Shown: piece by piece, positions 221-22,614 of the stretch
How positions within the stretch are numbered: position 1 is the stretch's first letter
Layout of the letters: every line of letters begins with the position of its first letter
NCBI RefSeq assembly: GCF_000025505.1
Contig: NC_013849.1
Location: 1,320,001-1,352,000 of the forward strand
DNA length: 32,000 nucleotides
Reading direction: 5' to 3'
From: Ferroglobus placidus DSM 10642
Lineage (GTDB): Archaea; Halobacteriota; Archaeoglobi; Archaeoglobales; Archaeoglobaceae
The notes under the pieces: generated by a model
What the model saw: the letters and a program-made list of their open reading frames with translations, nothing else
Database searches by the model: none
Told to the model about the DNA's origin: nothing
Position numbers and translations under genes: made by a program

Positions 221-493
221 TCAAATTCGCTCGAGCAAGTCTCCTATGACAACTCCGATGAGGAAAATAACTGCAAAGTACAGTATCACAAAAAGAATCG
301 CAAAAAAGCCGACTCCAGCCAGAAATAGGACTGCCGGGTGAGGGAAGATTAGAAAAGATGCTATCGCCAAAATTATTCCGAGTATTATCGAAAATTTTAA
401 CGCCGCTTTCAAAATACCGAGCAGATCCTCTTTCCCTTTTCTCGAATAACCGTAAATTACGCCGAGGAGGAAGGTTAAAAGTTCCAGAATCAT
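221..493 (-). CDS. Small hydrophobic membrane protein (90 aa, about 3 TM segments), function unknown
   Basis: The ORF is strongly hydrophobic (LLTFLLGVIYG, IILGIILAIASFLIF, FAILFVILYFAVIFLIGVVIG). Its ATG lies 1 nt after the stop of the upstream KaiC-like gene, which suggests an operon. Its stop codon directly abuts the last CRISPR repeat. Confidence 0.6.
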   Translation of the reverse strand: MILELLTFLLGVIYGYSRKGKEDLLGILKAALKFSIILGIILAIASFLIFPHPAVLFLAGVGFFAILFVILYFAVIFLIGVVIGDLLERI

Positions 494-494
494 T

Positions 495-1241
495 TTAGAA
501 TCCCGCGTAAACTTCTTCCCTCGAATGAACGACTATTCCTTCGTCGGTTATGTCGTAGGGGTGAATCTTCTTGCTGTGGTTCGTTCCTCTTAACTTGTAG
601 ATTTCCAAGCTCCTGATTCTAACGTTCTCGCTTCTCGTGTAGTAGAGAACTATCGTTCCCTCCGTAACGAAGTTCTCAACGCCGAATCTACTTATAGCTC
701 CTGATTCGATCACTTCAGCCGTTAAAATCGAAGTCAAACCGAGAACTTCGAGTGTCGTGCTGATTTTGAGAAGTTCTACTCTGAATTTCGCGGGATCGTT
801 TATTGCAAATCCGATGGCTGTTGTCGAATCTAAGGCAGCTCTTCTCGCTCCGATTTCGTCCTGAATCGTGATTATCTGATCTATCAAACTCCTCGTGTCG
901 AAGGGTCTTACGTCTATGTACTTCTCATCGCTCGGCAAACCTATCTTCGTTGATGTAGCGTCGACTATTGCGAGCATGTTTTCGTCTTCGAGCTTTTCCA
1001 AATCCCATCCGAACACTGCAAAGTGCTCTCTCAAGTGCTGCGGTCTTTCTTCGGTTGCAATGAATATCCCGGGCTCGTTGTAAAGAGTGGCGCCGTTTAC
1101 CAAGAATTGCATCGCAAATATCGTCTTTCCCGAGCCTGAAGGTCCGGCTATTAGCACGGTTCGATCTCTTACCAGCCCTCCCTCGCAGAGTTCGTCAAAG
1201 CCCGGAATACCGGTCGGACACCTCTCAAGTTTGATTTTCAT
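495..1241 (-). CDS. KaiC-like / RecA-superfamily ATPase, single domain (about 248 aa from the internal ATG at 1241)
   Basis: MKIKLERCPTGIPGFDELCEGGL is followed by Walker A GPSGSGKT, and a KaiC/RadA-like body follows (LAIVDATS, EIYKLRGTNH). The 14-codon extension in the ORF track is hydrophobic junk. A TATA-like TTTTTATAG (minus sense, about 1263-1272) sits about 27 nt upstream of ATG 1241. Confidence 0.85.
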   Translation of the reverse strand: MKIKLERCPTGIPGFDELCEGGLVRDRTVLIAGPSGSGKTIFAMQFLVNGATLYNEPGIFIATEERPQHLREHFAVFGWDLEKLEDENMLAIVDATSTKIGLPSDEKYIDVRPFDTRSLIDQIITIQDEIGARRAALDSTTAIGFAINDPAKFRVELLKISTTLEVLGLTSILTAEVIESGAISRFGVENFVTEGTIVLYYTRSENVRIRSLEIYKLRGTNHSKKIHPYDITDEGIVVHSREEVYAGF

Positions 1242-1315
1242 ACAGCTGATGATTATCATACTACTATAAAAAGTTAACCTCAAAGCTTAAATTAAATGAG
1301 GATTTATCATAATAC

Positions 1316-2516: not shown

Positions 2517-4082
2517 ATGATCTTTGCCGGTAGATATTACTCGCTCCTACAAAAGTACATACCGGAAAGCTGGGAAAATCTTGTAGAAGTTGAGGAAGGG
2601 GAGGAAGAGGCAGTACTCGAAGACTACTGGATTTTCAAACCATTCGTTTACGTGAGAATCGTTGAAGACGAGAGGGGAATTAGGTACAGAATCTTCGAAC
2701 CGAGTTTAACTGCCGAGGAGTACGAACTGCTCGAAGAAATCTATACGAATCTTTACGACATTCTCATTCTGAGGGACTTGAGGATTAGCATTGAGGAAAA
2801 AGCCGAAATTCTGGAAAAAGCTTTTAGAGACGTTCTGGAAATAATCCCCTACGAATTGGATGACGTTTTGATAGCGAAGTACAACTACTATCTCTTCAGG
2901 GACTTTTTGGGATTCGGTCCGATTGATCCTCTCCTCAACGACCCTTACATTGAAGACATAAGCTGCGACGGATACAAAATTCCGGTATACGTCTTTCACA
3001 GAAAGTACGGTCACATTCCGACAGACGTTGTTTTCGCAGAGGCGGAACTTGACAAATACGTCCAGTTTCTCGCTCAAATTTCAGGAAAACACTTGAGTCA
3101 CGGAAACCCGATGATAGACGCTACTCTGCCAGACGGTAGCAGAATTCAGGCAACCTACGGAACGGAAATTACGACGAGAGGGTCTTCCTTCTCGATTAGA
3201 AAGTTCTCAGAAAAACCGCTGATACCCCTCGACTTAATCAGGCTCGGGACGTATTCTGCAGAGCAGATGGCTTACTTCTGGCTATGCGTAGAAAACAAGT
3301 TGAACGTGCTCGTAATCGGAGAGACGGCTGCCGGAAAAACCACGACGCTTAACGCCATTTTGATGTTCCTCCCACCGAACGTCAAGGTGATATCTATAGA
3401 GGACACGAGAGAGATTTCTCTTTATCATGAAAACTGGATTGCCGAAGTGACGAGGGAAGCTGTTACCGAAGATGAGAAAGAAATAACTATGTACGATTTG
3501 TTAAAAGCTGCTCTGAGGCAGCGACCCGATTACATAGTCGTAGGAGAGGTTAGGGGCATCGAAGCTCAAACTCTGTTTCAAGCGATGAGTACCGGACATG
3601 CCGCATATTCGACTCTGCACGCTGGAGACATCCATCAAGCTATTTACAGACTTGAAACCGAGCCGCTTAACGTTCCGAGGAGTTTGATTCAATTCCTCGA
3701 CGTCGTTGCCGTGCAAACCCAGTGGACTAAACAAAAGGTCAGGCTGAGAAGGTGTAAAAAGATGTACGAAATTCTCGGCATAGATCCGAACGATAAAAAC
3801 TTGCTGATAAACGAAATTTTCAGCTGGGATCCGTACTCTGACAAGTTCGTTCAGGTTAATCCGTTGAGAAACCTTGAGAGGATAGCGGTGATTAGAGGGG
3901 AGAGTCCGGAAGACACAATAAGGGAACTTCGTAACAGAGCTGAGTTTTTAAAATACCTCATGAAGAGGGGTGTGGAGGACTACAAAACCTTCACGAGCAT
4001 GATTCATTCTTATTACAAGAGTCCGGAGGAAACTTTCGAAGTCATTTACGAAGAGGGAAAGCTCCATGAGCTCGAAGCTTGA
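2517..4082 (+). CDS. Type II/IV secretion-family ATPase (ArlI/FlaI / PilB / TadA-like), type IV filament assembly ATPase
   Basis: It carries Walker A GETAAGKTTTLNAIL, Walker B/Asp box RQRPDYIVVGEVRG and His box TGHAAYSTLHAG. The 521-aa length fits. An SD-like AGGAGAG lies at 2501-2507 and a TATA-like TTATATA at 2454-2460. Confidence 0.9.
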   Translation: MIFAGRYYSLLQKYIPESWENLVEVEEGEEEAVLEDYWIFKPFVYVRIVEDERGIRYRIFEPSLTAEEYELLEEIYTNLYDILILRDLRISIEEKAEILEKAFRDVLEIIPYELDDVLIAKYNYYLFRDFLGFGPIDPLLNDPYIEDISCDGYKIPVYVFHRKYGHIPTDVVFAEAELDKYVQFLAQISGKHLSHGNPMIDATLPDGSRIQATYGTEITTRGSSFSIRKFSEKPLIPLDLIRLGTYSAEQMAYFWLCVENKLNVLVIGETAAGKTTTLNAILMFLPPNVKVISIEDTREISLYHENWIAEVTREAVTEDEKEITMYDLLKAALRQRPDYIVVGEVRGIEAQTLFQAMSTGHAAYSTLHAGDIHQAIYRLETEPLNVPRSLIQFLDVVAVQTQWTKQKVRLRRCKKMYEILGIDPNDKNLLINEIFSWDPYSDKFVQVNPLRNLERIAVIRGESPEDTIRELRNRAEFLKYLMKRGVEDYKTFTSMIHSYYKSPEETFEVIYEEGKLHELEA

Positions 4083-5970
4083 GCACATATCAATATTTTA
4101 CCCGAAAGTCCTCGCTAAGTACTACTTCAAGAAGTATTTGAAGAATAAAAGCAATTACGAGTGGCTTGAGGGAAGCCTAAGGGCTTCGAGGATTCCGCTG
4201 ACTGTTCCCGAGTTTCTTGCTGTAGTTAATTTCTACACGATCCTCTCAATTCCGTTAGCAATTTTTCTCTCGTACCTATCTTACCTAATTTCCGAAGACG
4301 TTTACGGCTTCGTCGTTAACGTAATTCCCGTTCGCTTAGGAATTCCAAATCCTAAGTTCTTCTTCTCTCTTGGATTAGCGTCTCTCATTGCTTTGCTAAC
4401 GCTGCTCGTTGTGAGGAACATCTTGCTGAGAATACCGTCTTTTATAGCGAGAAGCAGAAAAGCGAAGATCGACGCAACGCTTTATCACGTCGCAAGTTTA
4501 ATGCTCGGAATGGCTAAGGGAGGAACCCCTCTCCTCGAGCTTTTTAGAACTGTAGCAGAGGAAAGGCACGTCACGGGGGAAGTGGGGAAGGAATTTTCGA
4601 TAATAGTCAGGAACGTTACGGTTTTCGGAAAGGACATAATAACTTCGATAAAAGAAGTGGCTGCTACAACTCCCTCTCAAAAATTGAGAGATTTTCTGGA
4701 AGATCTTGCAGGCGTTTTAGAAGGAGGAAGTTCTTTATCTGAATTCTTGGAATTTAAAATAGCTCACCTCGCCGAAGAAAGGGAGAGAGCTTACCAGCTT
4801 TACATAAGCAGTTACGAAATCCTTGCTGAAATATATGTTGCTATGCTCATCGTAGCCCCTCTTTTCTCGCTAATCGTTTTCGTGGTCATGAACATGATAG
4901 GGGAGAGCACGATCAATTTGATGAAGGCGATGGTTTACCTCTACATTCCCATCGGCGGTCTATTCTTCGTATACCTCGTAAAATCGTCAAAACTCTTGGA
5001 AGAGAAAAAATGGAGAGGAGAGAGCGTAGTTGAAGTTTACTTGCACGCCACGGTCAACGGCAAATCTTCGAGGTTAAAGAGGAAGAGCGGAATTGTCGTG
5101 TTCATGAAGAGAGCGTCTAAGTGGTTGGAAAGAGCGATTAAAATGAGGGCTTTTCTGAGGAATCCAAAATTAATTTTCCTTCTTTCGATACCGGCTGCGG
5201 CGGTGTTTGCAGCGGTTTTCTTTAAAGTGATGAAAATGGAAAGCTTGCTTACGTTCTCTTTCGTAATTGCAACTCTTCCTTACGTCCTTCTTTACGAATA
5301 CAGATCCTACAAGCTGAGAAAACTTGAAAAGCACCTTCCGGACTTCTTAAGGGGGTTGGGCAGTTTAAACGAGAGCGGGCTCAATATCGTCACGGCAATA
5401 AAAGTTTTGTCAGCAACTCAGCTCGGAGTTCTTACCGAAGAGGTAAGAAAGATTAGAAAGGATATAGAGTGGGGAAGGCTCGTTACTGAAGCTCTGGAAA
5501 GGTTCGAAGATAGAGTCGGAAGCTCTCTCGTTTCAAAAGTTGTTTCGATAATAAACAAAGCGTTAATGGCTACGAGCAACGTAAAAGCTGCTATATTGGC
5601 TGCCGCAGCGGACGTTGAGTTACTTCTCGACTTCAGAGAGAGGTTGAAGAATGCGATGTTCACGTACATGGTCATAATATACGTTACCTTCGCAGTATTC
5701 CTGTTTACGGTAGTCGTGGTTCTTCAGAACTTCATTTCCGTTTTTTCGAACATCTCTGTGGGGCAAATAACCGGAATATACTTCAACCCTCCAGATCTTG
5801 CGAATCTAACGTCCCTCTTCTATCACGCTTCTCTAATCAACGCCCTCGTTAACGGAATCATAGCTGGAGTTATGAGCGAGGAGAGCGTTTCAGCCGGACT
5901 TAAACATTCAATAATTTTAATGCTTACCAGCCTGCTCGTTTTCGCCTATGTTGTGGGGGTGGGAATATGA
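4066..5970 (+). CDS. FlaJ/ArlJ / TadB-TadC-like polytopic membrane platform protein
   Basis: The 634-aa multi-TM protein overlaps the ATPase gene by 17 nt. It has two cytoplasmic helical T2SS-F-like segments (ATLYHVASLMLGMAKGGTPLLELF and LPDFLRGLGSLNESGLNIVTAIKVL), each followed by TM helices. Confidence 0.85.
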   Translation: MSSKLEHISIFYPKVLAKYYFKKYLKNKSNYEWLEGSLRASRIPLTVPEFLAVVNFYTILSIPLAIFLSYLSYLISEDVYGFVVNVIPVRLGIPNPKFFFSLGLASLIALLTLLVVRNILLRIPSFIARSRKAKIDATLYHVASLMLGMAKGGTPLLELFRTVAEERHVTGEVGKEFSIIVRNVTVFGKDIITSIKEVAATTPSQKLRDFLEDLAGVLEGGSSLSEFLEFKIAHLAEERERAYQLYISSYEILAEIYVAMLIVAPLFSLIVFVVMNMIGESTINLMKAMVYLYIPIGGLFFVYLVKSSKLLEEKKWRGESVVEVYLHATVNGKSSRLKRKSGIVVFMKRASKWLERAIKMRAFLRNPKLIFLLSIPAAAVFAAVFFKVMKMESLLTFSFVIATLPYVLLYEYRSYKLRKLEKHLPDFLRGLGSLNESGLNIVTAIKVLSATQLGVLTEEVRKIRKDIEWGRLVTEALERFEDRVGSSLVSKVVSIINKALMATSNVKAAILAAAADVELLLDFRERLKNAMFTYMVIIYVTFAVFLFTVVVVLQNFISVFSNISVGQITGIYFNPPDLANLTSLFYHASLINALVNGIIAGVMSEESVSAGLKHSIILMLTSLLVFAYVVGVGI

Positions 5971-7293: not shown

Positions 7294-7304
7294 TTAAATA
7301 TAAT
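7294..7304 (+). promoter_or_regulatory. TATA-like box upstream of the actin-like gene
   Basis: TTAAATATAAT is centred about 36 nt upstream of ATG 7335, within a 60-nt intergenic gap. This implies a separate transcription start with a short leader. Confidence 0.4.
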
Positions 7305-7334
7305 CCACCAAAAATTTAAACGGGGGTTGCCGTT

Positions 7335-8384
7335 ATGAGCGAGGTGGAAGAGAAGAAGGAAGCCGAAAAAGTGGAAGGTAATGTGGTTCCGATTGGAATG
7401 AAAGTGGGTTCTCAGAGGACCGTTATAGCGAAGGGGGACGAAGTAATCGTTGTGGAGACCTGCATAAAGGAGAAGGAGAATCCGATAACCGGAGAAAAGG
7501 ATTACGTAGTAGGTAACGAAGCGGCTGAGCTTTACGGAGATGAAGCTGTTTACATGCTTCGCGGTGGCTTGCCGGGGAATGAGGAAGAAGCAGAACTCCT
7601 GAAAATTTTCCTGACGAAAATAGCGAAGGCGTATGAAATTCCGGAGAACTCTTACGTCACCTACGGAATTCCGTCGACTGAAACTGAAGAGGGTGTTAAT
7701 TTATTTAAGAAGGTCATAAGTCAGGTTCCAATTGGCTGGGCTGGAAAGGAAGTTTGGAACGACTCGTTTTTAGCTGCTTTAGCGCTTCCCGAAGGTTTGG
7801 GGATGCTCGAAAAAACGTTCATAGTCGTTAACCTCGGCTCTTCAACCACGGATGTCGTGGCTGTTAGGAAGGGAGAGATAGTTTTCAGTATGGTCACCGG
7901 AGAAGTTTCTGGGGACTTAGTTGACAGGTGGATAAAGAACGAGATAATGAATCTCACGAGAGGTGCCGTAAACGTAGATCTGTCTACTGCGAGGGAGTAC
8001 AAGGAGAAGTACGCGAATTTAAAGGAGTGGAAGAGGGTGGAAGAGAAAGTGCAGCTTTTCGAAAAAGGACAGTTCAGCTTCAGGCTCGATGAAGCTGTCA
8101 ACAAACCGGTGGAAAGGTATTTGGACGCTCTCGTAGACTTCATAACCCTCGAATTCCTGCCTTCGTTAGCTGAATTCAACTTCAAAGCTTACAAAGTCCT
8201 GCTCGAATCTGAGTTCATTCTAACCGGAGGCATGGCTGAAATTCCGGGTTTAAAGGAGAAGTTTGCAGCAAAGCTTTCAGAAGCTCTCGGATTTGGAGTT
8301 AAGGTTAGAAGTCCGGAAAATCCGCTAACAGCTTCAGCGAGGGGTGCTTTACTAATTTCGCAACTCAGGGTGAGGAGAGGGTAA
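7335..8384 (+). CDS. Actin-fold protein, MreB/ParM/PilM-like, with substituted catalytic acidic residues
   Basis: By-eye collinearity with MreB: IGMKVGSQRT (phosphate 1), YVTYGIPSTETEE, FIVVNLGSSTTDVVAV (phosphate 2), FILTGGMAEIPGLKEKF (adenosine motif) and NPLTASARGA. Confidence 0.75.
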   Translation: MSEVEEKKEAEKVEGNVVPIGMKVGSQRTVIAKGDEVIVVETCIKEKENPITGEKDYVVGNEAAELYGDEAVYMLRGGLPGNEEEAELLKIFLTKIAKAYEIPENSYVTYGIPSTETEEGVNLFKKVISQVPIGWAGKEVWNDSFLAALALPEGLGMLEKTFIVVNLGSSTTDVVAVRKGEIVFSMVTGEVSGDLVDRWIKNEIMNLTRGAVNVDLSTAREYKEKYANLKEWKRVEEKVQLFEKGQFSFRLDEAVNKPVERYLDALVDFITLEFLPSLAEFNFKAYKVLLESEFILTGGMAEIPGLKEKFAAKLSEALGFGVKVRSPENPLTASARGALLISQLRVRRG

Positions 8385-8906
8385 ATGACTGAAGAGCTAT
8401 TAAGCCGGGCTGAGAATTTATTAAAAAAATGGGACTCCCTCTTTGAGGAATTGAAGAAATTCGTTGATGAGGACCTTCCTAAAATAGAAACCAGTATAAA
8501 AAAGGTGGTTGAAAGAATGCATTTACTTGAGAATAGAGTCGATAAAATAGAGAAAAAGTTAGAGCGAATTGTTTTCGAAAACGAGAGTTTAAAAAAGACA
8601 TTCAACAATCTTAGGGAGGGGGTATTTACTTTAGAGGCGGAAATAAACGGAAAGATTGAAGGGTTAAAGTGTACATTTGAAACTCTTGAAAACAAGGTGG
8701 AAAATCTTTTGAAATATGAATCAGAAAAAAAAGCTGGTGAAGTTGGGAGCGAGGAACTAGAAAAGTTAAGAGAAGAAATAACAGAATTAAAGAAGAGCGT
8801 TGATCAATTATCTACGGAACTTTCTCAATTGAAAAGTAGTGTTACTGAAAAGTTTTGGTCTGTGAGAGAGAAAAAAGTGGAAAGTAAATCACCAAGAATT
8901 TTGTGA
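8385..8906 (+). CDS. Coiled-coil protein (173 aa, no TM segment), function unknown
   Basis: Its ATG immediately follows the actin-like stop codon. The charged heptad-rich sequence (ENRVDKIEKKLERI, LENKVENLLKYE, LEKLREEITELKKSVDQLSTELSQLK) indicates a coiled coil. Confidence 0.7.
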   Translation: MTEELLSRAENLLKKWDSLFEELKKFVDEDLPKIETSIKKVVERMHLLENRVDKIEKKLERIVFENESLKKTFNNLREGVFTLEAEINGKIEGLKCTFETLENKVENLLKYESEKKAGEVGSEELEKLREEITELKKSVDQLSTELSQLKSSVTEKFWSVREKKVESKSPRIL

Positions 8907-9712
8907 AAAATATGGAAATATATCCAGACTTTCTAGAATTAAAAAAGAAGCTTAAGAAAATTATTGAAGATTTTTATTCACTGAGGACAAAGGGAGCCAA
9001 GGTAATCTCTTTTCCGTCGGGGAAGGGTGGTGTGGGTAAAACAACAATAGTTCTAAATCTTGCGGCAGCTCTTGCGTTAAGTGGAAAGAGAGTAGCAATT
9101 GTTGATTTAAACCTTGCTTTACCTAATGTGTCTTTGTTTCTCCAGAATACTCCTAAAAAAACTGTAACGCACTTTCTTTGTGATGAAGCTGAACTAAGTG
9201 AAATTTTAGTTAAATTAAATATAAAAAAAGCAGAGATAGATGTTTTTCCAGCAGAATCAATTGTTAATTTAGGGAAAAAAGTTAAAATAGAACGAATCAG
9301 GGAGCTTATATTATATTTAAAGCCGAACTACGACTACATCCTTTTCGACCAATCTCCGGGCTTGTCGAAATTTGCGATCTATCCAACCCTTGTTGCGGAT
9401 GTAGTCTTCGTCGTTTCGGCAGATATAAAACCAGCTTATTTGGATGCGATTAAAGTTAGAGACGTTCTCGAGGAGAGCGGAGTTAATTTCAACGGATTCG
9501 TCGTGAACATGACGAAGAGAAATAATCTAAGGTACTTTTACAACGAGAGAGTTTACGCAACGATACCTTACGACTGGAGGTTGAAAAACGCTTTTTCTTC
9601 TGGAAAAACTGTTTTTCAGCTTCGTTTCGGCTTTTTATCTTCAAGCAAGAGAGCTTTTTCGAAATTCGCGGAAAAGCTAATTGAAGATTTTCCCCCAGAA
9701 AGAGTATGGTAA
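8903..9712 (+). CDS. MinD/ParA-family ATPase (deviant Walker A)
   Basis: SFPSGKGGVGKTTIVLNLAAALA is the deviant Walker A KGGxGKT, and the body is MinD-like (VAIVDLN, ILFDQSPG). The start is either GTG 8903, overlapping the upstream stop, or ATG 8912. Confidence 0.88.
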   Translation: MKNMEIYPDFLELKKKLKKIIEDFYSLRTKGAKVISFPSGKGGVGKTTIVLNLAAALALSGKRVAIVDLNLALPNVSLFLQNTPKKTVTHFLCDEAELSEILVKLNIKKAEIDVFPAESIVNLGKKVKIERIRELILYLKPNYDYILFDQSPGLSKFAIYPTLVADVVFVVSADIKPAYLDAIKVRDVLEESGVNFNGFVVNMTKRNNLRYFYNERVYATIPYDWRLKNAFSSGKTVFQLRFGFLSSSKRAFSKFAEKLIEDFPPERVW

Positions 9713-10233
9713 ACAAGTCTGAAGTTTTGAGGAAATCCGTACATCTTCTTGGTCTCCTTTACATTCCAGCCCTCTTTTATCTTGGAAAAGATTTTATGAG
9801 TGCTGCAGTTCTTTTACTGACAGCTTTTGCCTCTTTTTTAGAGATTATAAGAGCTAAAAAGGAGATTTTTCCCGATTCTATCCTTAGAGAATACGAAAAG
9901 AGGGGAGTTGGAGGCTACCTCTACACTGGTTTGGCATTCTCAATAATTACTCCCCTTTTTCCTCTAAAAGCTTGTGTAATAGCTGCCATTTGTGCCTTTG
10001 CTGGGGATGGCTTAGCCGGAATTTTCAAAAAAGTGAACAGAAAGCTGTCTTTTCCGACGTTTTTTACATTCTCTTACATTCTAAGTTTAACGCTCGGCTT
10101 GGACTGGAAGCTCACCTCAGTTACAATAATTATCTCGGCAATGTTCGATGGAAGAAAGTTTTTGAACGACAACTTCACGATTCCGATTTCCGCAGCGATT
10201 ACCTACCACTTTTTGACAACTTTGTTTGGGTAG
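9706..10233 (+). CDS. Small polytopic membrane protein, CTP-dependent polyprenol (dolichol/phytol) kinase-like family
   Basis: The N-terminal RKSVHLLG matches the RKxxHxxxG motif and FAGDGLAGIFKK matches the GDxxAxxxG motif, as recalled from dolichol/phytol kinases (cytidylyltransferase family 1). It has about 5 TM segments and overlaps the MinD-like gene by 7 nt. Confidence 0.5.
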   Translation: MVNKSEVLRKSVHLLGLLYIPALFYLGKDFMSAAVLLLTAFASFLEIIRAKKEIFPDSILREYEKRGVGGYLYTGLAFSIITPLFPLKACVIAAICAFAGDGLAGIFKKVNRKLSFPTFFTFSYILSLTLGLDWKLTSVTIIISAMFDGRKFLNDNFTIPISAAITYHFLTTLFG

Positions 10234-14592: not shown

Positions 14593-15228
14593 ATGGGCTT
14601 GTTGCTATCACTAAAGAAGAAGTTCGGCTTTATCCTTAAGCTATTCTTCAAAAAAGACAAGATGCGGATAGGAATTTACGGTCCGCCAAATGCGGGCAAA
14701 ACGACTCTCGCGAACAGAATTCTGAGAGACTGGACTGGCGATGTGATGGGAGTAGAAAGCGAAATCCCCCACGAGACGAGGAGGGCTAAGCTTAGAGAAG
14801 GAGTAAAGATAGAGGTGGACGGAAAATCTCTAACCATAGACATCGTCGACACTCCTGGCATAGCTACGAAAATAGACTTTCACGACTTCTTAAAGTACGG
14901 AATGAGCGAGGAGGAAGCTAAAAGGAGGGCGAAAGAGGCTACCGAAGGAGTTATCGAAGCTATAAAGTGGCTCGACGATTTAGACGGAGTGCTTCTCGTT
15001 ATGGATTCAACCGAAGATCCTTACACGCAGGTGAACGTTACTATAGTCGGTAACATAGAGGCGAGGGGTTTGCCTTTGCTCATAGTGGCGAATAAAATAG
15101 ATCTGCCTAACGCTTCTCCGGCGAGAATAAAATCCGCTTTTCCTCAACACACTGTGGTGCCGATTTCGGCTCTTAAGGGAATAAACATAGAAAACCTCTA
15201 CAGAGCGATGGCTGAGAAGTTCGGGTGA
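14593..15228 (+). CDS. Small GTP-binding protein with a basic/hydrophobic N-terminal extension
   Basis: The GTPase motifs are G1 [10 protein letters not shown]3 DTPG and G4 NKID. The N-terminal 23 aa are [23 protein letters not shown]. An AT-rich TTTTTAACTA is centred about 24 nt upstream of ATG 14593. Confidence 0.85.
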
Positions 15229-15584
15229 TGGTTATGGAGGGCGTTCAGCTGAGCCTGATCTCTAAGGAAAAGCTCGAAAAAATGGCTTCAATGGAGAAGC
15301 TCAGAATGATTCTCGACAGCGTGAAAGAGGGAAAGATAGTAGTCCTCGAAAGCGGATTAACACCTGAGGAGGAGGCTAAGCTCATAGAAATGACTATGCT
15401 GGAAATAGATCACGAGAACTTCGTTGGAATCGAAGTAGAAAGCTATCCCTACAAGGAGAGCTTCCTCTCCAAAATATTCGGAAAGAAGAAAGGTAGATTG
15501 ACCGTCATAGGACCTGCTAACAGGCTGAAGACTTTGGAAAAGAAAGAAGATTTGATAACGGCTCTCGTTAAAATAGGGGATTGA
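15225..15584 (+). CDS. Conserved archaeal hypothetical protein (tentatively DUF2073-type)
   Basis: Its start overlaps the GTPase stop (GTG 15225, ATG 15228 or 15234). The sequence is compact and acidic ([38 protein letters not shown]). The family name is recalled from memory, not searched. Confidence 0.65.
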
Positions 15585-15585
15585 A

Positions 15586-15885
15586 ATGCCTCATCAGTGC
15601 ACGAAATGCGGAAAAATCTTCGCCGACGGCGACGTGAATATTTTAAAAGGTTGCGAGTGCGGAAACAACAAATTTCTTTACATCCCTAAGGTTAAGGGAA
15701 GGGAGAAGGAGGAGCTTGAGGAGCAGTTCGAGAAAATCGAGAGCGTTAGGATAATCGCTCCGGGAACTTACGAGATAAACATCGAGAAACTTCTTGAGAG
15801 GGACGAAATCATAATCGCCCTTCAAGAAAACGGAAGATACGCCATTCATCTACCTTCTCTCGTTAAAAAGAAGAAGAGAAAATGA
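15586..15885 (+). CDS. Zn-ribbon protein (tentatively DUF2072-type)
   Basis: The N-terminal segment CTKCGKIF...GCECGNNKF provides a four-Cys ribbon. The gene starts 1 nt after the upstream stop and ends in a basic tail, KKKKRK. Confidence 0.7.
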   Translation: MPHQCTKCGKIFADGDVNILKGCECGNNKFLYIPKVKGREKEELEEQFEKIESVRIIAPGTYEINIEKLLERDEIIIALQENGRYAIHLPSLVKKKKRK

Positions 15886-21216: not shown

Positions 21217-21741
21217 ATGTGGAGAGATGAGAAGGCAGTATCGCCAGTGATTGGTGTTATTTTGATGGTGGCAATAACCGTCATACTGGCGGCAGTGATT
21301 GCCAGCTTCGTCTTTGGACTGGGAAGCAAGGCTCCAAAGGCTGCTCCGCAGGCTAGTTTAGTAGCTAGTGCTTACGATAATGAAACGAAATACAATACAA
21401 TAGATCTTAAGGGAAAGACAGACTTGGTCATAATAGAGCATCAGGGTGGAGAAAATATTCCGTGGGCAGATGTAAAGGTGATTGTTGAAGGTACGAAAAA
21501 CAAATCGAGTTTAACTACAGCTGATGCGGAAAATATAAAATATGTGGACAATAGTAACAAATCGGCTTGGTATCAAGACGAGATATCATCCAACGAATTC
21601 TTTGAGCCGGGTGAGAAACTTGTAATCGCCTTCAACAACAGTGCTTACAACCACTTTGGAGCAGGCGATTCGGTTACAATAAAAGTCCTGCACACTCCAA
21701 GCAACCAGATGATATTGTCAGCAAAAGTGGCAGCTCAGTGA
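21217..21741 (+). CDS. Archaeal type IV pilin-like protein (class III signal peptide, DUF1628-like N-terminus)
   Basis: The N-terminus is MWRDEKAVSPVIGVILMVAITVILAAVIASFVFGLG. GAGGTGAT lies at 21203-21210 and a TATA-like TATTTATA at about 21173-21180. Four N-X-S/T sequons are present. Confidence 0.85.
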   Translation: MWRDEKAVSPVIGVILMVAITVILAAVIASFVFGLGSKAPKAAPQASLVASAYDNETKYNTIDLKGKTDLVIIEHQGGENIPWADVKVIVEGTKNKSSLTTADAENIKYVDNSNKSAWYQDEISSNEFFEPGEKLVIAFNNSAYNHFGAGDSVTIKVLHTPSNQMILSAKVAAQ

Positions 21742-21954: not shown

Positions 21955-22614
21955 TTAGGTGAAAACCTTATTTTCGAGCTTTCTGACGCGGTCAATTAGA
22001 TCCTCGATGATCTTATCTTTGGCTTTTAATTCTTTGAGCTCTACGGTGTTCTGCTCTACTCTCTCCACAAGCTTGTCTATTCTCGTCGATAGAGCGAGAA
22101 TAACTTCTGTAAGGTGATCTACCCTTTTGTTAAGTTCTTGGTTCATCGTGTCCACTTTTGAGCTTAGTGCATCCACTCTTTTGTTTGTTTCGTCTATTCT
22201 TTTGCTTAGCTCTTGATTTATCGAGTCAATCCTCCTGTTAGTTTCATCTATCCTTTTGCTTAATTCCTGATTTATCGAATCAACTTTCAAGCTTAATGAA
22301 TCTATCCTCTTGTTTAACTCTTGATTTATAGAATCAATTCTCTTATTCGTTTCATCAATTCTCCTACTCAGCTCTTCGTTAATTTTGTCGATTCTTTTAT
22401 TCGCTTCGTCCATCCTTCTTTCCAGTCCATCCATTCTCTTCTCTATGGAATCCATTCTTTGCTCAATACCATCTATTCTCTTGTTCATCGTCTCGACTGC
22501 TATCCTGAAGCCTTCGAGCTGTCCTCTGACCTCGGCTTTAAATTCTTTGAACTCTTCTCTTATTTCACCAATTATCGCATCCCTGAACTTTTCAAGAACC
22601 TTCTCAATATCCAT
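21955..22614 (-). CDS. Repetitive coiled-coil protein (219 aa) built from [KR]-[IVM]-D-initiated 7- and 11-residue units
   Basis: About 16 consecutive units are visible, for example RIDETNK / RIDSINQELSK. There is no TM segment or signal peptide. A TATA-like TTTTAAATTT (minus sense) lies about 30 nt upstream of the ATG. Confidence 0.8.
   Translation of the reverse strand: MDIEKVLEKFRDAIIGEIREEFKEFKAEVRGQLEGFRIAVETMNKRIDGIEQRMDSIEKRMDGLERRMDEANKRIDKINEELSRRIDETNKRIDSINQELNKRIDSLSLKVDSINQELSKRIDETNRRIDSINQELSKRIDETNKRVDALSSKVDTMNQELNKRVDHLTEVILALSTRIDKLVERVEQNTVELKELKAKDKIIEDLIDRVRKLENKVFT
22080..22479 (-). repeat. In-frame degenerate tandem repeats (21/33-nt units, 54-nt super-repeat) inside the coiled-coil gene
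   Basis: The DNA units are recognisably related but carry many synonymous differences (ttgatttatcgagtcaatcctcct / ctgatttatcgaatcaactttcaa / ttgatttatagaatcaattctctt). The protein periodicity is conserved. Confidence 0.75.

Follow-up and report, generated by a model that had tools for sequence, protein, structure and literature searches.

Salactin is an archaeal actin homologue that was described in 2023 in Halobacterium salinarum (Zheng et al. 2023, PMC10746226). For the H. salinarum protein, ATPase activity has been measured, and it was found that the protein polymerises with ATP or AMP-PNP but not with ADP, and that it is dynamically unstable in vivo (PMC10746226). The same study placed salactin homologues across the Methanotecta, the Archaeoglobi included (PMC10746226). 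Dynamics in vivo are known for very few archaeal actins, salactin among them. Here we describe a stretch of 32,000 nucleotides (nt) of the genome of Ferroglobus placidus DSM 10642 (NC_013849.1, positions 1,320,001 to 1,352,000; the whole stretch is called the window in the following), in which a salactin gene is the first gene of a tight operon that continues with genes for a coiled-coil adaptor and a MinD/FleN-type ATPase (Table 1). In contrast, the H. salinarum salactin gene is without such neighbours, and its synteny has been called poor (PMC10746226). We suggest, with confidence that stays close to even, that the three proteins form a module of dynamic actin, adaptor and positioning ATPase that acts at type IV filament machines, a reading in which the protein contacts and the cellular role are inferred.

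Several described systems resemble parts of this locus. MamK is the closest solved structure and also a profile match of the Ferroglobus salactin. In Magnetospirillum, the actin-like MamK filament is linked to membrane-associated cargo by a dedicated non-globular adaptor, MamJ, which offers a functional analogy. However, MamK has the canonical D/E/D active site whereas the Ferroglobus salactin has K/D/N, no magnetosome genes are found here, the adaptor, a coiled coil ending in SPRIL, is unrelated to MamJ, and the operon contains a MinD-type ATPase. ParMRC likewise combines a dynamically unstable actin-like filament with an adaptor that binds it. The C-terminal peptide of ParR binds ParM, and the invariant C-terminal peptide of the Ferroglobus adaptor invites the same idea. 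Unlike ParMRC, the locus has neither a ribbon-helix-helix (RHH) adaptor nor centromere repeats, it is chromosomal and it encodes an additional ParA/MinD ATPase. Several deviant-Walker-A ATPases determine the position of archaella, chemosensory arrays, flagella or Tad pili, namely MinD2 and MinD4 of Haloferax volcanii and, in bacteria, FlhG/FleN and TadZ/CpaE; for none of them has an operon been described that also encodes an actin and an adaptor, as it does in Ferroglobus. Finally, the filament genes of the window, with a PilB3_N/C ATPase, a single platform and a pilin-like gene, fit the euryarchaeal "clade 2 / system 2" pilus loci (Makarova et al. 2016; 2026 preprint with a census of archaeal type IV filament (TFF) systems), from which the Ferroglobus locus differs by its actin homologue. 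It has also been proposed previously that euryarchaeal pili depend on a MinD-like ATPase (Makarova et al. 2016; 2026 TFF census preprint). The salactin family and the association of MinD with pili are therefore already known, whereas neither the operon with the adaptor nor the cross-lineage link of salactin to pilus or archaellum genes was found in those salactin papers and surveys of type IV filaments that were searched. Archaella are never mentioned in the salactin paper (PMC10746226), "actin" occurs 0 times in the 2026 census preprint, and in Makarova et al. (2016) there are two word-start matches to "actin", one of which is "Actinobacillus" in the reference list.

The Ferroglobus salactin and its operon

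The product of the first gene of the operon matches the Pfam family Salactin (PF25229) with an E value of 7.2e-95 and a score of 318.3 bits, far above the cutoff of 27.1. The match spans residues 18-343 of the 349-aa protein, which also exceeds the cutoff of the NCBIfam salactin equivalog (NF053533; 413.3 bits, cutoff 400). It is a full-length member of the salactin family. A first-pass annotation of the window, made by a model from the sequence alone, had stated that the cassette of actin, coiled-coil protein and MinD beside a pilus core could be assigned to no described archaeal system, which does not stand for the actin because the family was described in 2023 with the Archaeoglobi already listed. 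The actin fold that had been proposed for the protein was borne out. The AlphaFold2 (AF2) model has a predicted local distance difference test (pLDDT) score of 89.7, and a Foldseek search of the PDB returned MamK as the best match (5ljv, E 7e-21, template modelling scores 0.76/0.81; also 5ljw), followed by MreB, BeeR and actin. Moreover, the salactin profile matches MamK at 8e-11, and the nearest relatives are MamK and MreB, not sugar kinases or Hsp70. A phmmer search with the Ferroglobus salactin against PDB sequences gave no match, so a profile search was needed. The protein is not of the PilM type, as PilM_2 scored only 12 bits (E 0.092, cutoff 27). It belongs to the same family as the H. 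salinarum salactin, as judged by the equivalog-level score of the hidden Markov model (HMM), although both share only about 36-40% identity.

It had also been noted that the three acidic positions used by actin-fold ATPases all appear substituted. In the profile alignment to MamK, two of these substitutions hold: the Asp of phosphate-1 is replaced by Lys and that of phosphate-2 by Asn. The connect-1 position keeps its acid, since the Asp within "WNDSF" is aligned to the Glu that MamK has in "SEP" (signature residues K23, D143 and N166). A survey of 84 salactin open reading frames (ORFs) from fetched loci plus the window, in which phosphate-1 was scored in 83, revealed Lys at phosphate-1 in 83/83, Asn at phosphate-2 in 84/84 and an acidic residue (D or E) at connect-1 in 84/84 salactins; the haloarchaeal and Methanocella proteins carry Glu at the latter position. 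The H. salinarum salactin (P0032, named Salactin in UniRef) reads PLGVKVGSTRT, SYPESLCGA and AINMGSTNLE and thus has the same K/acidic/N pattern as the Ferroglobus protein, with E instead of D at connect-1. From the substitutions, the first-pass annotation had suggested that the protein binds nucleotide without hydrolysing it, so that it would act as a static scaffold. The exchange of both phosphate-loop aspartates speaks for this explanation, which we nevertheless regard as highly improbable because the same Lys and Asn are invariant in a family that includes the ATP-hydrolysing H. salinarum salactin, with its ATP-dependent polymerisation and dynamic instability, and because the connect-1 acid is retained throughout. 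The K/N substitutions are thus a hallmark of the family, and probably of an active enzyme rather than of a pseudo-ATPase. To our knowledge, Lys at phosphate-1 and Asn at phosphate-2 are unusual among actin-fold ATPases (MreB, ParM, actin, Hsp70), and their invariance in an ATP-hydrolysing actin poses a small mechanistic puzzle. The words "catalytic" and "residue" have 0 occurrences in the text of the salactin paper (PMC10746226).

The operon is chained as the first-pass annotation had described it, with 0 nt between the salactin and adaptor genes and, depending on the start codon of the MinD-type gene, a 4-nt overlap (GTG) or a 5-nt gap (ATG). The TATA-like box TTAAATATAA that it had noticed upstream is present, and the 57 nt before the salactin ATG are almost invariant in the window and two further Ferroglobus-like genomes (L001, L002), in which the flanking coding sequence diverges. 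This leader includes the box as well as a GGGGG stretch at 8-12 nt from the start codon, and its conservation would fit a promoter of its own for the salactin operon. The three genes had been named correctly, but a fourth chained gene encodes a membrane protein of 175 amino acids (aa) that has no Pfam or NCBIfam family match and was found only at Ferroglobus-like loci (L001, 78%; L002, 53%).

The coiled-coil protein lacks a transmembrane segment, as had been noted before, and its AF2 model consists of three long helices. An alignment of the family revealed a conserved N-terminal head (L.KWD.LFEEL...P), a coiled coil that varies (149-275 aa) and an invariant C-terminal KSPR(I/L)L. In the genome set, the window included, a [ST]PR[IL]L C-terminus ends 18/18 of the proteins encoded downstream of salactin, against a background of 2 looser chance matches among 13,096 six-frame ORFs. 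An SPR(I/L)L or TPRIL tail is thus present on every salactin-downstream protein in the Archaeoglobi, in ANME-1 and in one distant metagenome-assembled genome (MAG); TPRIL ends a 499-aa, largely disordered protein beside a salactin that is only 42% identical. The tail pattern was replicated at metagenome loci. At the sequence level the family is tiny, because an exhaustive phmmer search with the adaptor gave only 6 true homologues among 1.84 billion cluster representatives. A profile search of an index of 5.8 billion proteins, which was swamped by coiled-coil words, returned only the protein of the MAG L018. Pfam gave about 100 generic coiled-coil matches, among them FlaC_arch with 24.1 bits (cutoff 27.8), and for this reason the assignment as an ArlC/FlaC homologue was not adopted. 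There was also no RHH, helix-turn-helix (HTH) or ParB-like match in Pfam or NCBIfam. As far as can be read from the alignment, the conserved head and the invariant tail would be the anatomy of an adaptor with two binding ends. Two MAGs labelled Woesearchaeota and Desulfurobacterium (L009, L014) carry an Archaeoglobaceae-type salactin (61% identity) and adaptor with a KSPRLL tail, and these taxon labels are probably binning errors.

The third protein possesses the deviant Walker A motif SGKGGVGKTT at residues 39-48, with the signature lysine, and the motif is invariant in the family alignment. Pfam matches are AAA_31, ParA and CbiA. The protein scores 112.2 bits against NCBIfam minD_arch (TIGR01969), which is below the cutoff of 201.75, yet its nearest solved relatives are the archaeal proteins MinD-1 of A. 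fulgidus (1hyq, 1.5e-17) and MinD of P. furiosus (1g3q), followed by FleN/FlhG; it is therefore a divergent MinD/FleN-like member. This agrees with the deviant-Walker-A MinD/ParA ATPase that had been predicted. The C-terminal RAFSKFAEKLIEDF has an amphipathic pattern, as judged by eye, but the terminal helix of the MinD/ParA fold is usually amphipathic anyway. In a Logan assembly of the same organism (L081, 11578-12377), the MinD gene is split into calls of 125 and 116 aa, probably by an assembly or sequencing frameshift.

The order salactin gene, coiled-coil gene, MinD-type gene is collinear in 13/13 other loci of Ferroglobus, Geoglobus and Archaeoglobaceae with enough downstream sequence, and it recurs on metagenome contigs. 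The co-occurrence that had been suggested as a check on the trio was thus observed. No MinD gene comes after the adaptor in the Archaeoglobales MAG L017, in L018 and in ANME-1, the last of which has a GT2 gene instead. Salactin and the adaptor are the conserved core, to which MinD is added as a third member in Ferroglobus, Geoglobus and Archaeoglobaceae. In the Archaeoglobaceae (L008, 1899-6703; L010, 5126-9909; L011), the gene of an AbrB(MazE)-PhoU regulator stands immediately upstream of salactin, overlapping the salactin start by 8 nt in L010, and diverges from an operon that encodes an ABC transporter for phosphate (PBP_like_2, two permeases, ABC ATPase; pstSCAB-phoU). This neighbourhood echoes the low-phosphate phenotype of H. 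salinarum without salactin.

Type IV filament genes beside salactin

The salactin operon begins 60 nt downstream of the pilin-like gene of a type IV filament locus, and the gap as well as the secretion ATPase and the platform protein that had been recognised there were verified, together with a pilin-like protein that has a class III signal-like N-terminus. The ATPase gene overlaps the platform gene, and its product scores 422 bits against NCBIfam FlaI (cutoff 550), i.e. below the archaellum-motor equivalog. The 435-aa protein starts with MNDKALSPVLGFVLVFAIIIAG, in which "DKALSPVLG" is followed by a hydrophobic helix, and it has a single hydrophobic segment (residues 2-35). This N-terminus resembles the EKAVSPVIGVILMVAITVILAA of a Pilin_N protein encoded elsewhere in the window (21217-21741); Pilin_N itself scores nothing on the 435-aa protein, whose sole Pfam match is a weak one to DUF7289 (2.4e-4). 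Since HMMs for ArlH, ArlFG and ArlDE gave no matches in the window, the locus is not an archaellum operon. No class III signal peptidase or prepilin peptidase was found among the window ORFs scanned, and such an enzyme may be encoded elsewhere.

Which type IV filament genes stand next to salactin differs from lineage to lineage. In Ferroglobus, the ATPase, platform and pilin-like genes lie upstream of the operon. In four Archaeoglobaceae loci (L008, L010, L012, L013), a platform gene, whose product is 42% identical to that of the window, is located directly downstream of MinD. In Methanocella, an A24 prepilin/preflagellin peptidase gene directly follows salactin at 5/7 loci. All seven Methanocella loci (L019-L025) have a gene at about 7690-9900 for a protein of about 740 aa directly upstream of salactin; the protein has a signal peptide, CarboxypepD_reg, one transmembrane segment and a long cytoplasmic tail whose end is possibly HTH-like, as judged by eye.

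In haloarchaea, where genes at the high-GC loci were called by six-frame HMM scans and an ORF caller aware of GC content at third codon positions (GC3), a paralogue of ArlD/E (Arch_fla_DE, Pfam 1e-14 to 1e-29) is encoded less than 500 nt upstream on the same strand at 38/58 salactin genes from genomes and 31/55 from metagenomes. Furthermore, Halovenus has two salactin paralogues inside the arl operon (order ArlCDE, ArlF, ArlG, salactin, ArlCDE, ArlH, salactin, ArlCDE, ArlH, ArlI, ArlJ), and the salactin gene of Haloferax elongans is situated in the arl/che region behind an ArlD paralogue. The ArlD paralogues upstream of haloarchaeal salactin (e.g. L065, 9350-9847) have the conserved peptide "M.INPRDYDLDELR.MAR" at the N-terminus, from which a disordered linker leads to the Arch_fla_DE domain at the C-terminus, a bipartite layout that is reminiscent of the Archaeoglobi adaptor. 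Two salactin genes were observed in Actinarchaeum halophilum (L032, L064) and Halocatena marina (L034, L070), with the second copy of Actinarchaeum lying on an 845-kb second chromosome without an ArlD-like neighbour.

A divergent gene pair for a ParA-type ATPase and a CheW-domain protein stands beside salactin in 15/58 (genomes) and 22/55 (metagenomes) haloarchaeal cases. The ATPase (e.g. L052, 7270-9164 on the minus strand; L057, L065, L076, L115-L161) contains "NAKGGTGKTT" and a 35-aa insert, and its gene is translationally coupled to that of a 329-aa protein with a C-terminal CheW domain, both being divergent from the ArlD-like/salactin pair. The pair resembles the bacterial ParC/ParP pair, which positions chemoreceptor arrays, and it may be the MinD2/HVO_0596 operon of H. 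volcanii. Orthology of this ATPase with the Archaeoglobi MinD was considered and rejected, as the alignment revealed a different Walker A context and the 35-aa insert.

The adjacency of filament genes is absent in Geoglobus, the JdFR-42 lineage, ANME-1, the MAG L018 and Halobacterium. The salactin of Halobacterium has no adaptor, MinD or filament-gene neighbours, and the poor synteny reported in the salactin paper can be attributed to the loss of these neighbours in Halobacterium. The link between salactin and filament genes is thus an association and not a fixed architecture, because it is missing in Geoglobus, ANME-1 and Halobacterium. The earlier proposal of a tie to the type IV filament machinery gains independent comparative support from several lineages, but it does not extend to these three.

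The neighbourhoods also bear on the explanation that the operon encodes a general module for cell shape or for the division site, which acts on the envelope or the divisome and next to which filament genes would have no functional meaning. The nearest solved relatives of the MinD-type ATPase are annotated as cell-division inhibitors, MreB is among the nearest structural relatives of salactin, and MinD2 of H. volcanii affects cell shape. However, no division or envelope genes recur beside salactin in the 160 loci examined, and the recurrent neighbours are of filament, archaellum and chemotaxis type, which makes a shape or division module quite unlikely.

Candidate roles of the module

The reading that we prefer, a module acting at type IV filament machines, draws on the family identity of salactin, the active-site pattern that it shares with the active H. 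salinarum protein, the collinear trio, the architecture of the adaptor, the different filament genes beside salactin in separate lineages and the ParA/MinD-family ATPase linked to it in haloarchaea. In this module, salactin would polymerise, hydrolyse ATP and form dynamic filaments that start from a fixed membrane-proximal site, as published for the polar foci of H. salinarum. The adaptor would bridge salactin to this site, with its two conserved ends binding two different partners. The MinD-type ATPase, which is expected to dimerise on ATP, would set where and at how many sites filaments are anchored. The anchoring site would be the cytoplasmic face of type IV filament machines, for which ATPase, platform and pilin are here encoded 60 nt upstream. 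The module would then be a cytoskeletal anchoring and positioning unit of a surface-filament apparatus, and it may also tie the nucleoid to the site of the filament machine.

Published observations from haloarchaea fit such an anchoring function. Salactin filaments emanate from polar foci in H. salinarum (PMC10746226), MinD2 and MinD4 position archaella and chemosensory arrays in H. volcanii, and ArlCE and ArlD keep their polar position when the motor is missing, a finding that points to a further polar factor. Other observations weigh against it. Deletion of salactin in H. salinarum caused no defect in soft-agar motility, while DNA distribution was affected at low phosphate (PMC10746226), and deletion of arlD2 in H. 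volcanii had no motility phenotype. The lineages without filament-gene adjacency listed above count here as well, and the adjacency counts are inflated by shared ancestry within one lineage. Moreover, the ParA-type neighbour in haloarchaea and the MinD-type protein of the Archaeoglobi are not orthologues. An AF2 prediction for an artificially designed salactin-adaptor fusion, in which the SPRIL tail had a pLDDT below 50, gave no evidence for docking.

The main rival, a serious though less likely one, is that the operon encodes a chromosome-partitioning apparatus unrelated to pili, in which salactin would move DNA like ParM or Alp7A, the adaptor would bind DNA or the nucleoid, MinD/ParA would act on the nucleoid and the pilus adjacency would be incidental. 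H. salinarum without salactin shows perturbed DNA distribution and lower viability at low phosphate, and a role in segregation has been proposed (PMC10746226). In addition, the AbrB-PhoU gene of the Archaeoglobaceae overlaps the salactin start beside pstSCAB-phoU, oapB and oapC are located nearby downstream in the window, and the Geoglobus trio stands alone among metabolic genes. On the other hand, Pfam and NCBIfam detect no DNA-binding domain in the trio, the upstream gap offers only 60 nt, a repeat search found no iteron- or centromere-like arrays, and there is no Orc1/Cdc6 among the window ORFs scanned. No salactin copies were found in the phage or viral collections searched; salactin is also absent from the plasmid collection searched (PLSDB), a negative that says little because this collection is believed to be largely bacterial. 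Partitioning also gives no reason for the presence of four different type IV filament components beside salactin in as many lineages. The partitioning and filament readings do not exclude each other, as a polar hub could serve both, for which HubP of Vibrio with ParA1, ParC/ParP and FlhG is a precedent.

The filament-machine reading can be extended to the Methanotecta as a whole. A polar organising cytoskeleton would then be built from salactin, a ParA/MinD ATPase and an adaptor that differs between lineages, namely the SPRIL coiled coil of Archaeoglobi and ANME-1 and an ArlD paralogue in the case of haloarchaea. This cytoskeleton would be the missing "polar factor" or a structure associated with the polar cap; it would hold archaella, pili and chemosensory arrays in place and determine their position, and it could also attach chromosomes to the pole. 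We consider this extension rather unlikely as it stands. It bears on the open problem of how ArlCDE is retained at the pole without the motor and what the polar cap is composed of. The conserved partners of salactin outside Halobacterium, namely the adaptor and the ParA/MinD ATPase, and the adjoining filament genes are testable candidates for a polar anchor. Taken together, most of what the first-pass annotation observed is real, and about half of its interpretation is supported. Its headline, a catalytically dead actin, does not hold, and the protein belongs to a family that had already been described.

Further features of the window

The genome most similar to the window is a Ferroglobus MAG with 95% protein identity. 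The features of the locus are listed in Table 1.

Table 1 Features of the salactin locus in the window (positions refer to the window)
Feature	Position	Strand	Evidence or remark
KaiC-like ATPase, single-domain	495..1283	-	Pfam KaiC PF06745 7.8e-76; opposite strand to pilus genes
PilB3-like assembly ATPase of a type IV filament, distinct from the archaellum motor ArlI	2517..4082	+	T2SSE 8.7e-38, PilB3_C and PilB3_N
Type IV filament platform protein, T2SSF/TadC/ArlJ-like	4066..5970	+	T2SSF 1.5e-30 in two stretches; 7 predicted hydrophobic segments
Pilin-like or adhesin-like protein, 435 aa	5967..7274	+	Class III signal-type N-terminus
TATA-like box TTAAATATAA	7294..7303	+	Read directly; predicted promoter/leader of salactin operon
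Salactin, 349 aa, archaeal actin homologue of the MamK/MreB branch	7335..8384	+	Pfam, NCBIfam, AF2
Coiled-coil adaptor, family-specific, 173 aa	8385..8906	+	Conserved head, variable coiled coil, C-terminal -KSPRIL
MinD/FleN-type deviant-Walker-A ATPase	8903..9712	+	269 aa from GTG 8903; 266 aa from ATG 8912
Membrane protein, 175 aa, fourth gene of the chain	9706..10233	+	7-nt overlap with MinD gene; two hydrophobic segments

The KaiC-like gene is separated from the pilus genes by a fructose-bisphosphate (FBP) aldolase gene, and a 90-aa protein of the AF0891 family is encoded together with it (221-1283, minus strand). KaiC-family ATPases have been reported as type IV pilus-associated in archaea (PMC4858521), and in Geoglobus (L006) the trio is followed, at a distance of about 1.6 kb, by a KaiC-like gene of the same cluster (C24). 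The genes oapB and oapC, which stand behind the gene of a small GTPase (14593-15885 in total), are located about 5-5.5 kb downstream of the salactin operon, and their products belong to the "origin-associated protein" families OapB (PF09846, 4.7e-43) and OapC (PF09845, 1.4e-32). The Pilin_N protein mentioned above is a bona fide archaeal type IV pilin (plus strand, Pilin_N 5.5e-26), and its gene and the pilus core are about 11.5 kb apart. A 219-aa coiled-coil protein with internal NKRIDSINQELSKRIDET repeats is encoded convergently to this pilin at 21955-22614 on the minus strand.

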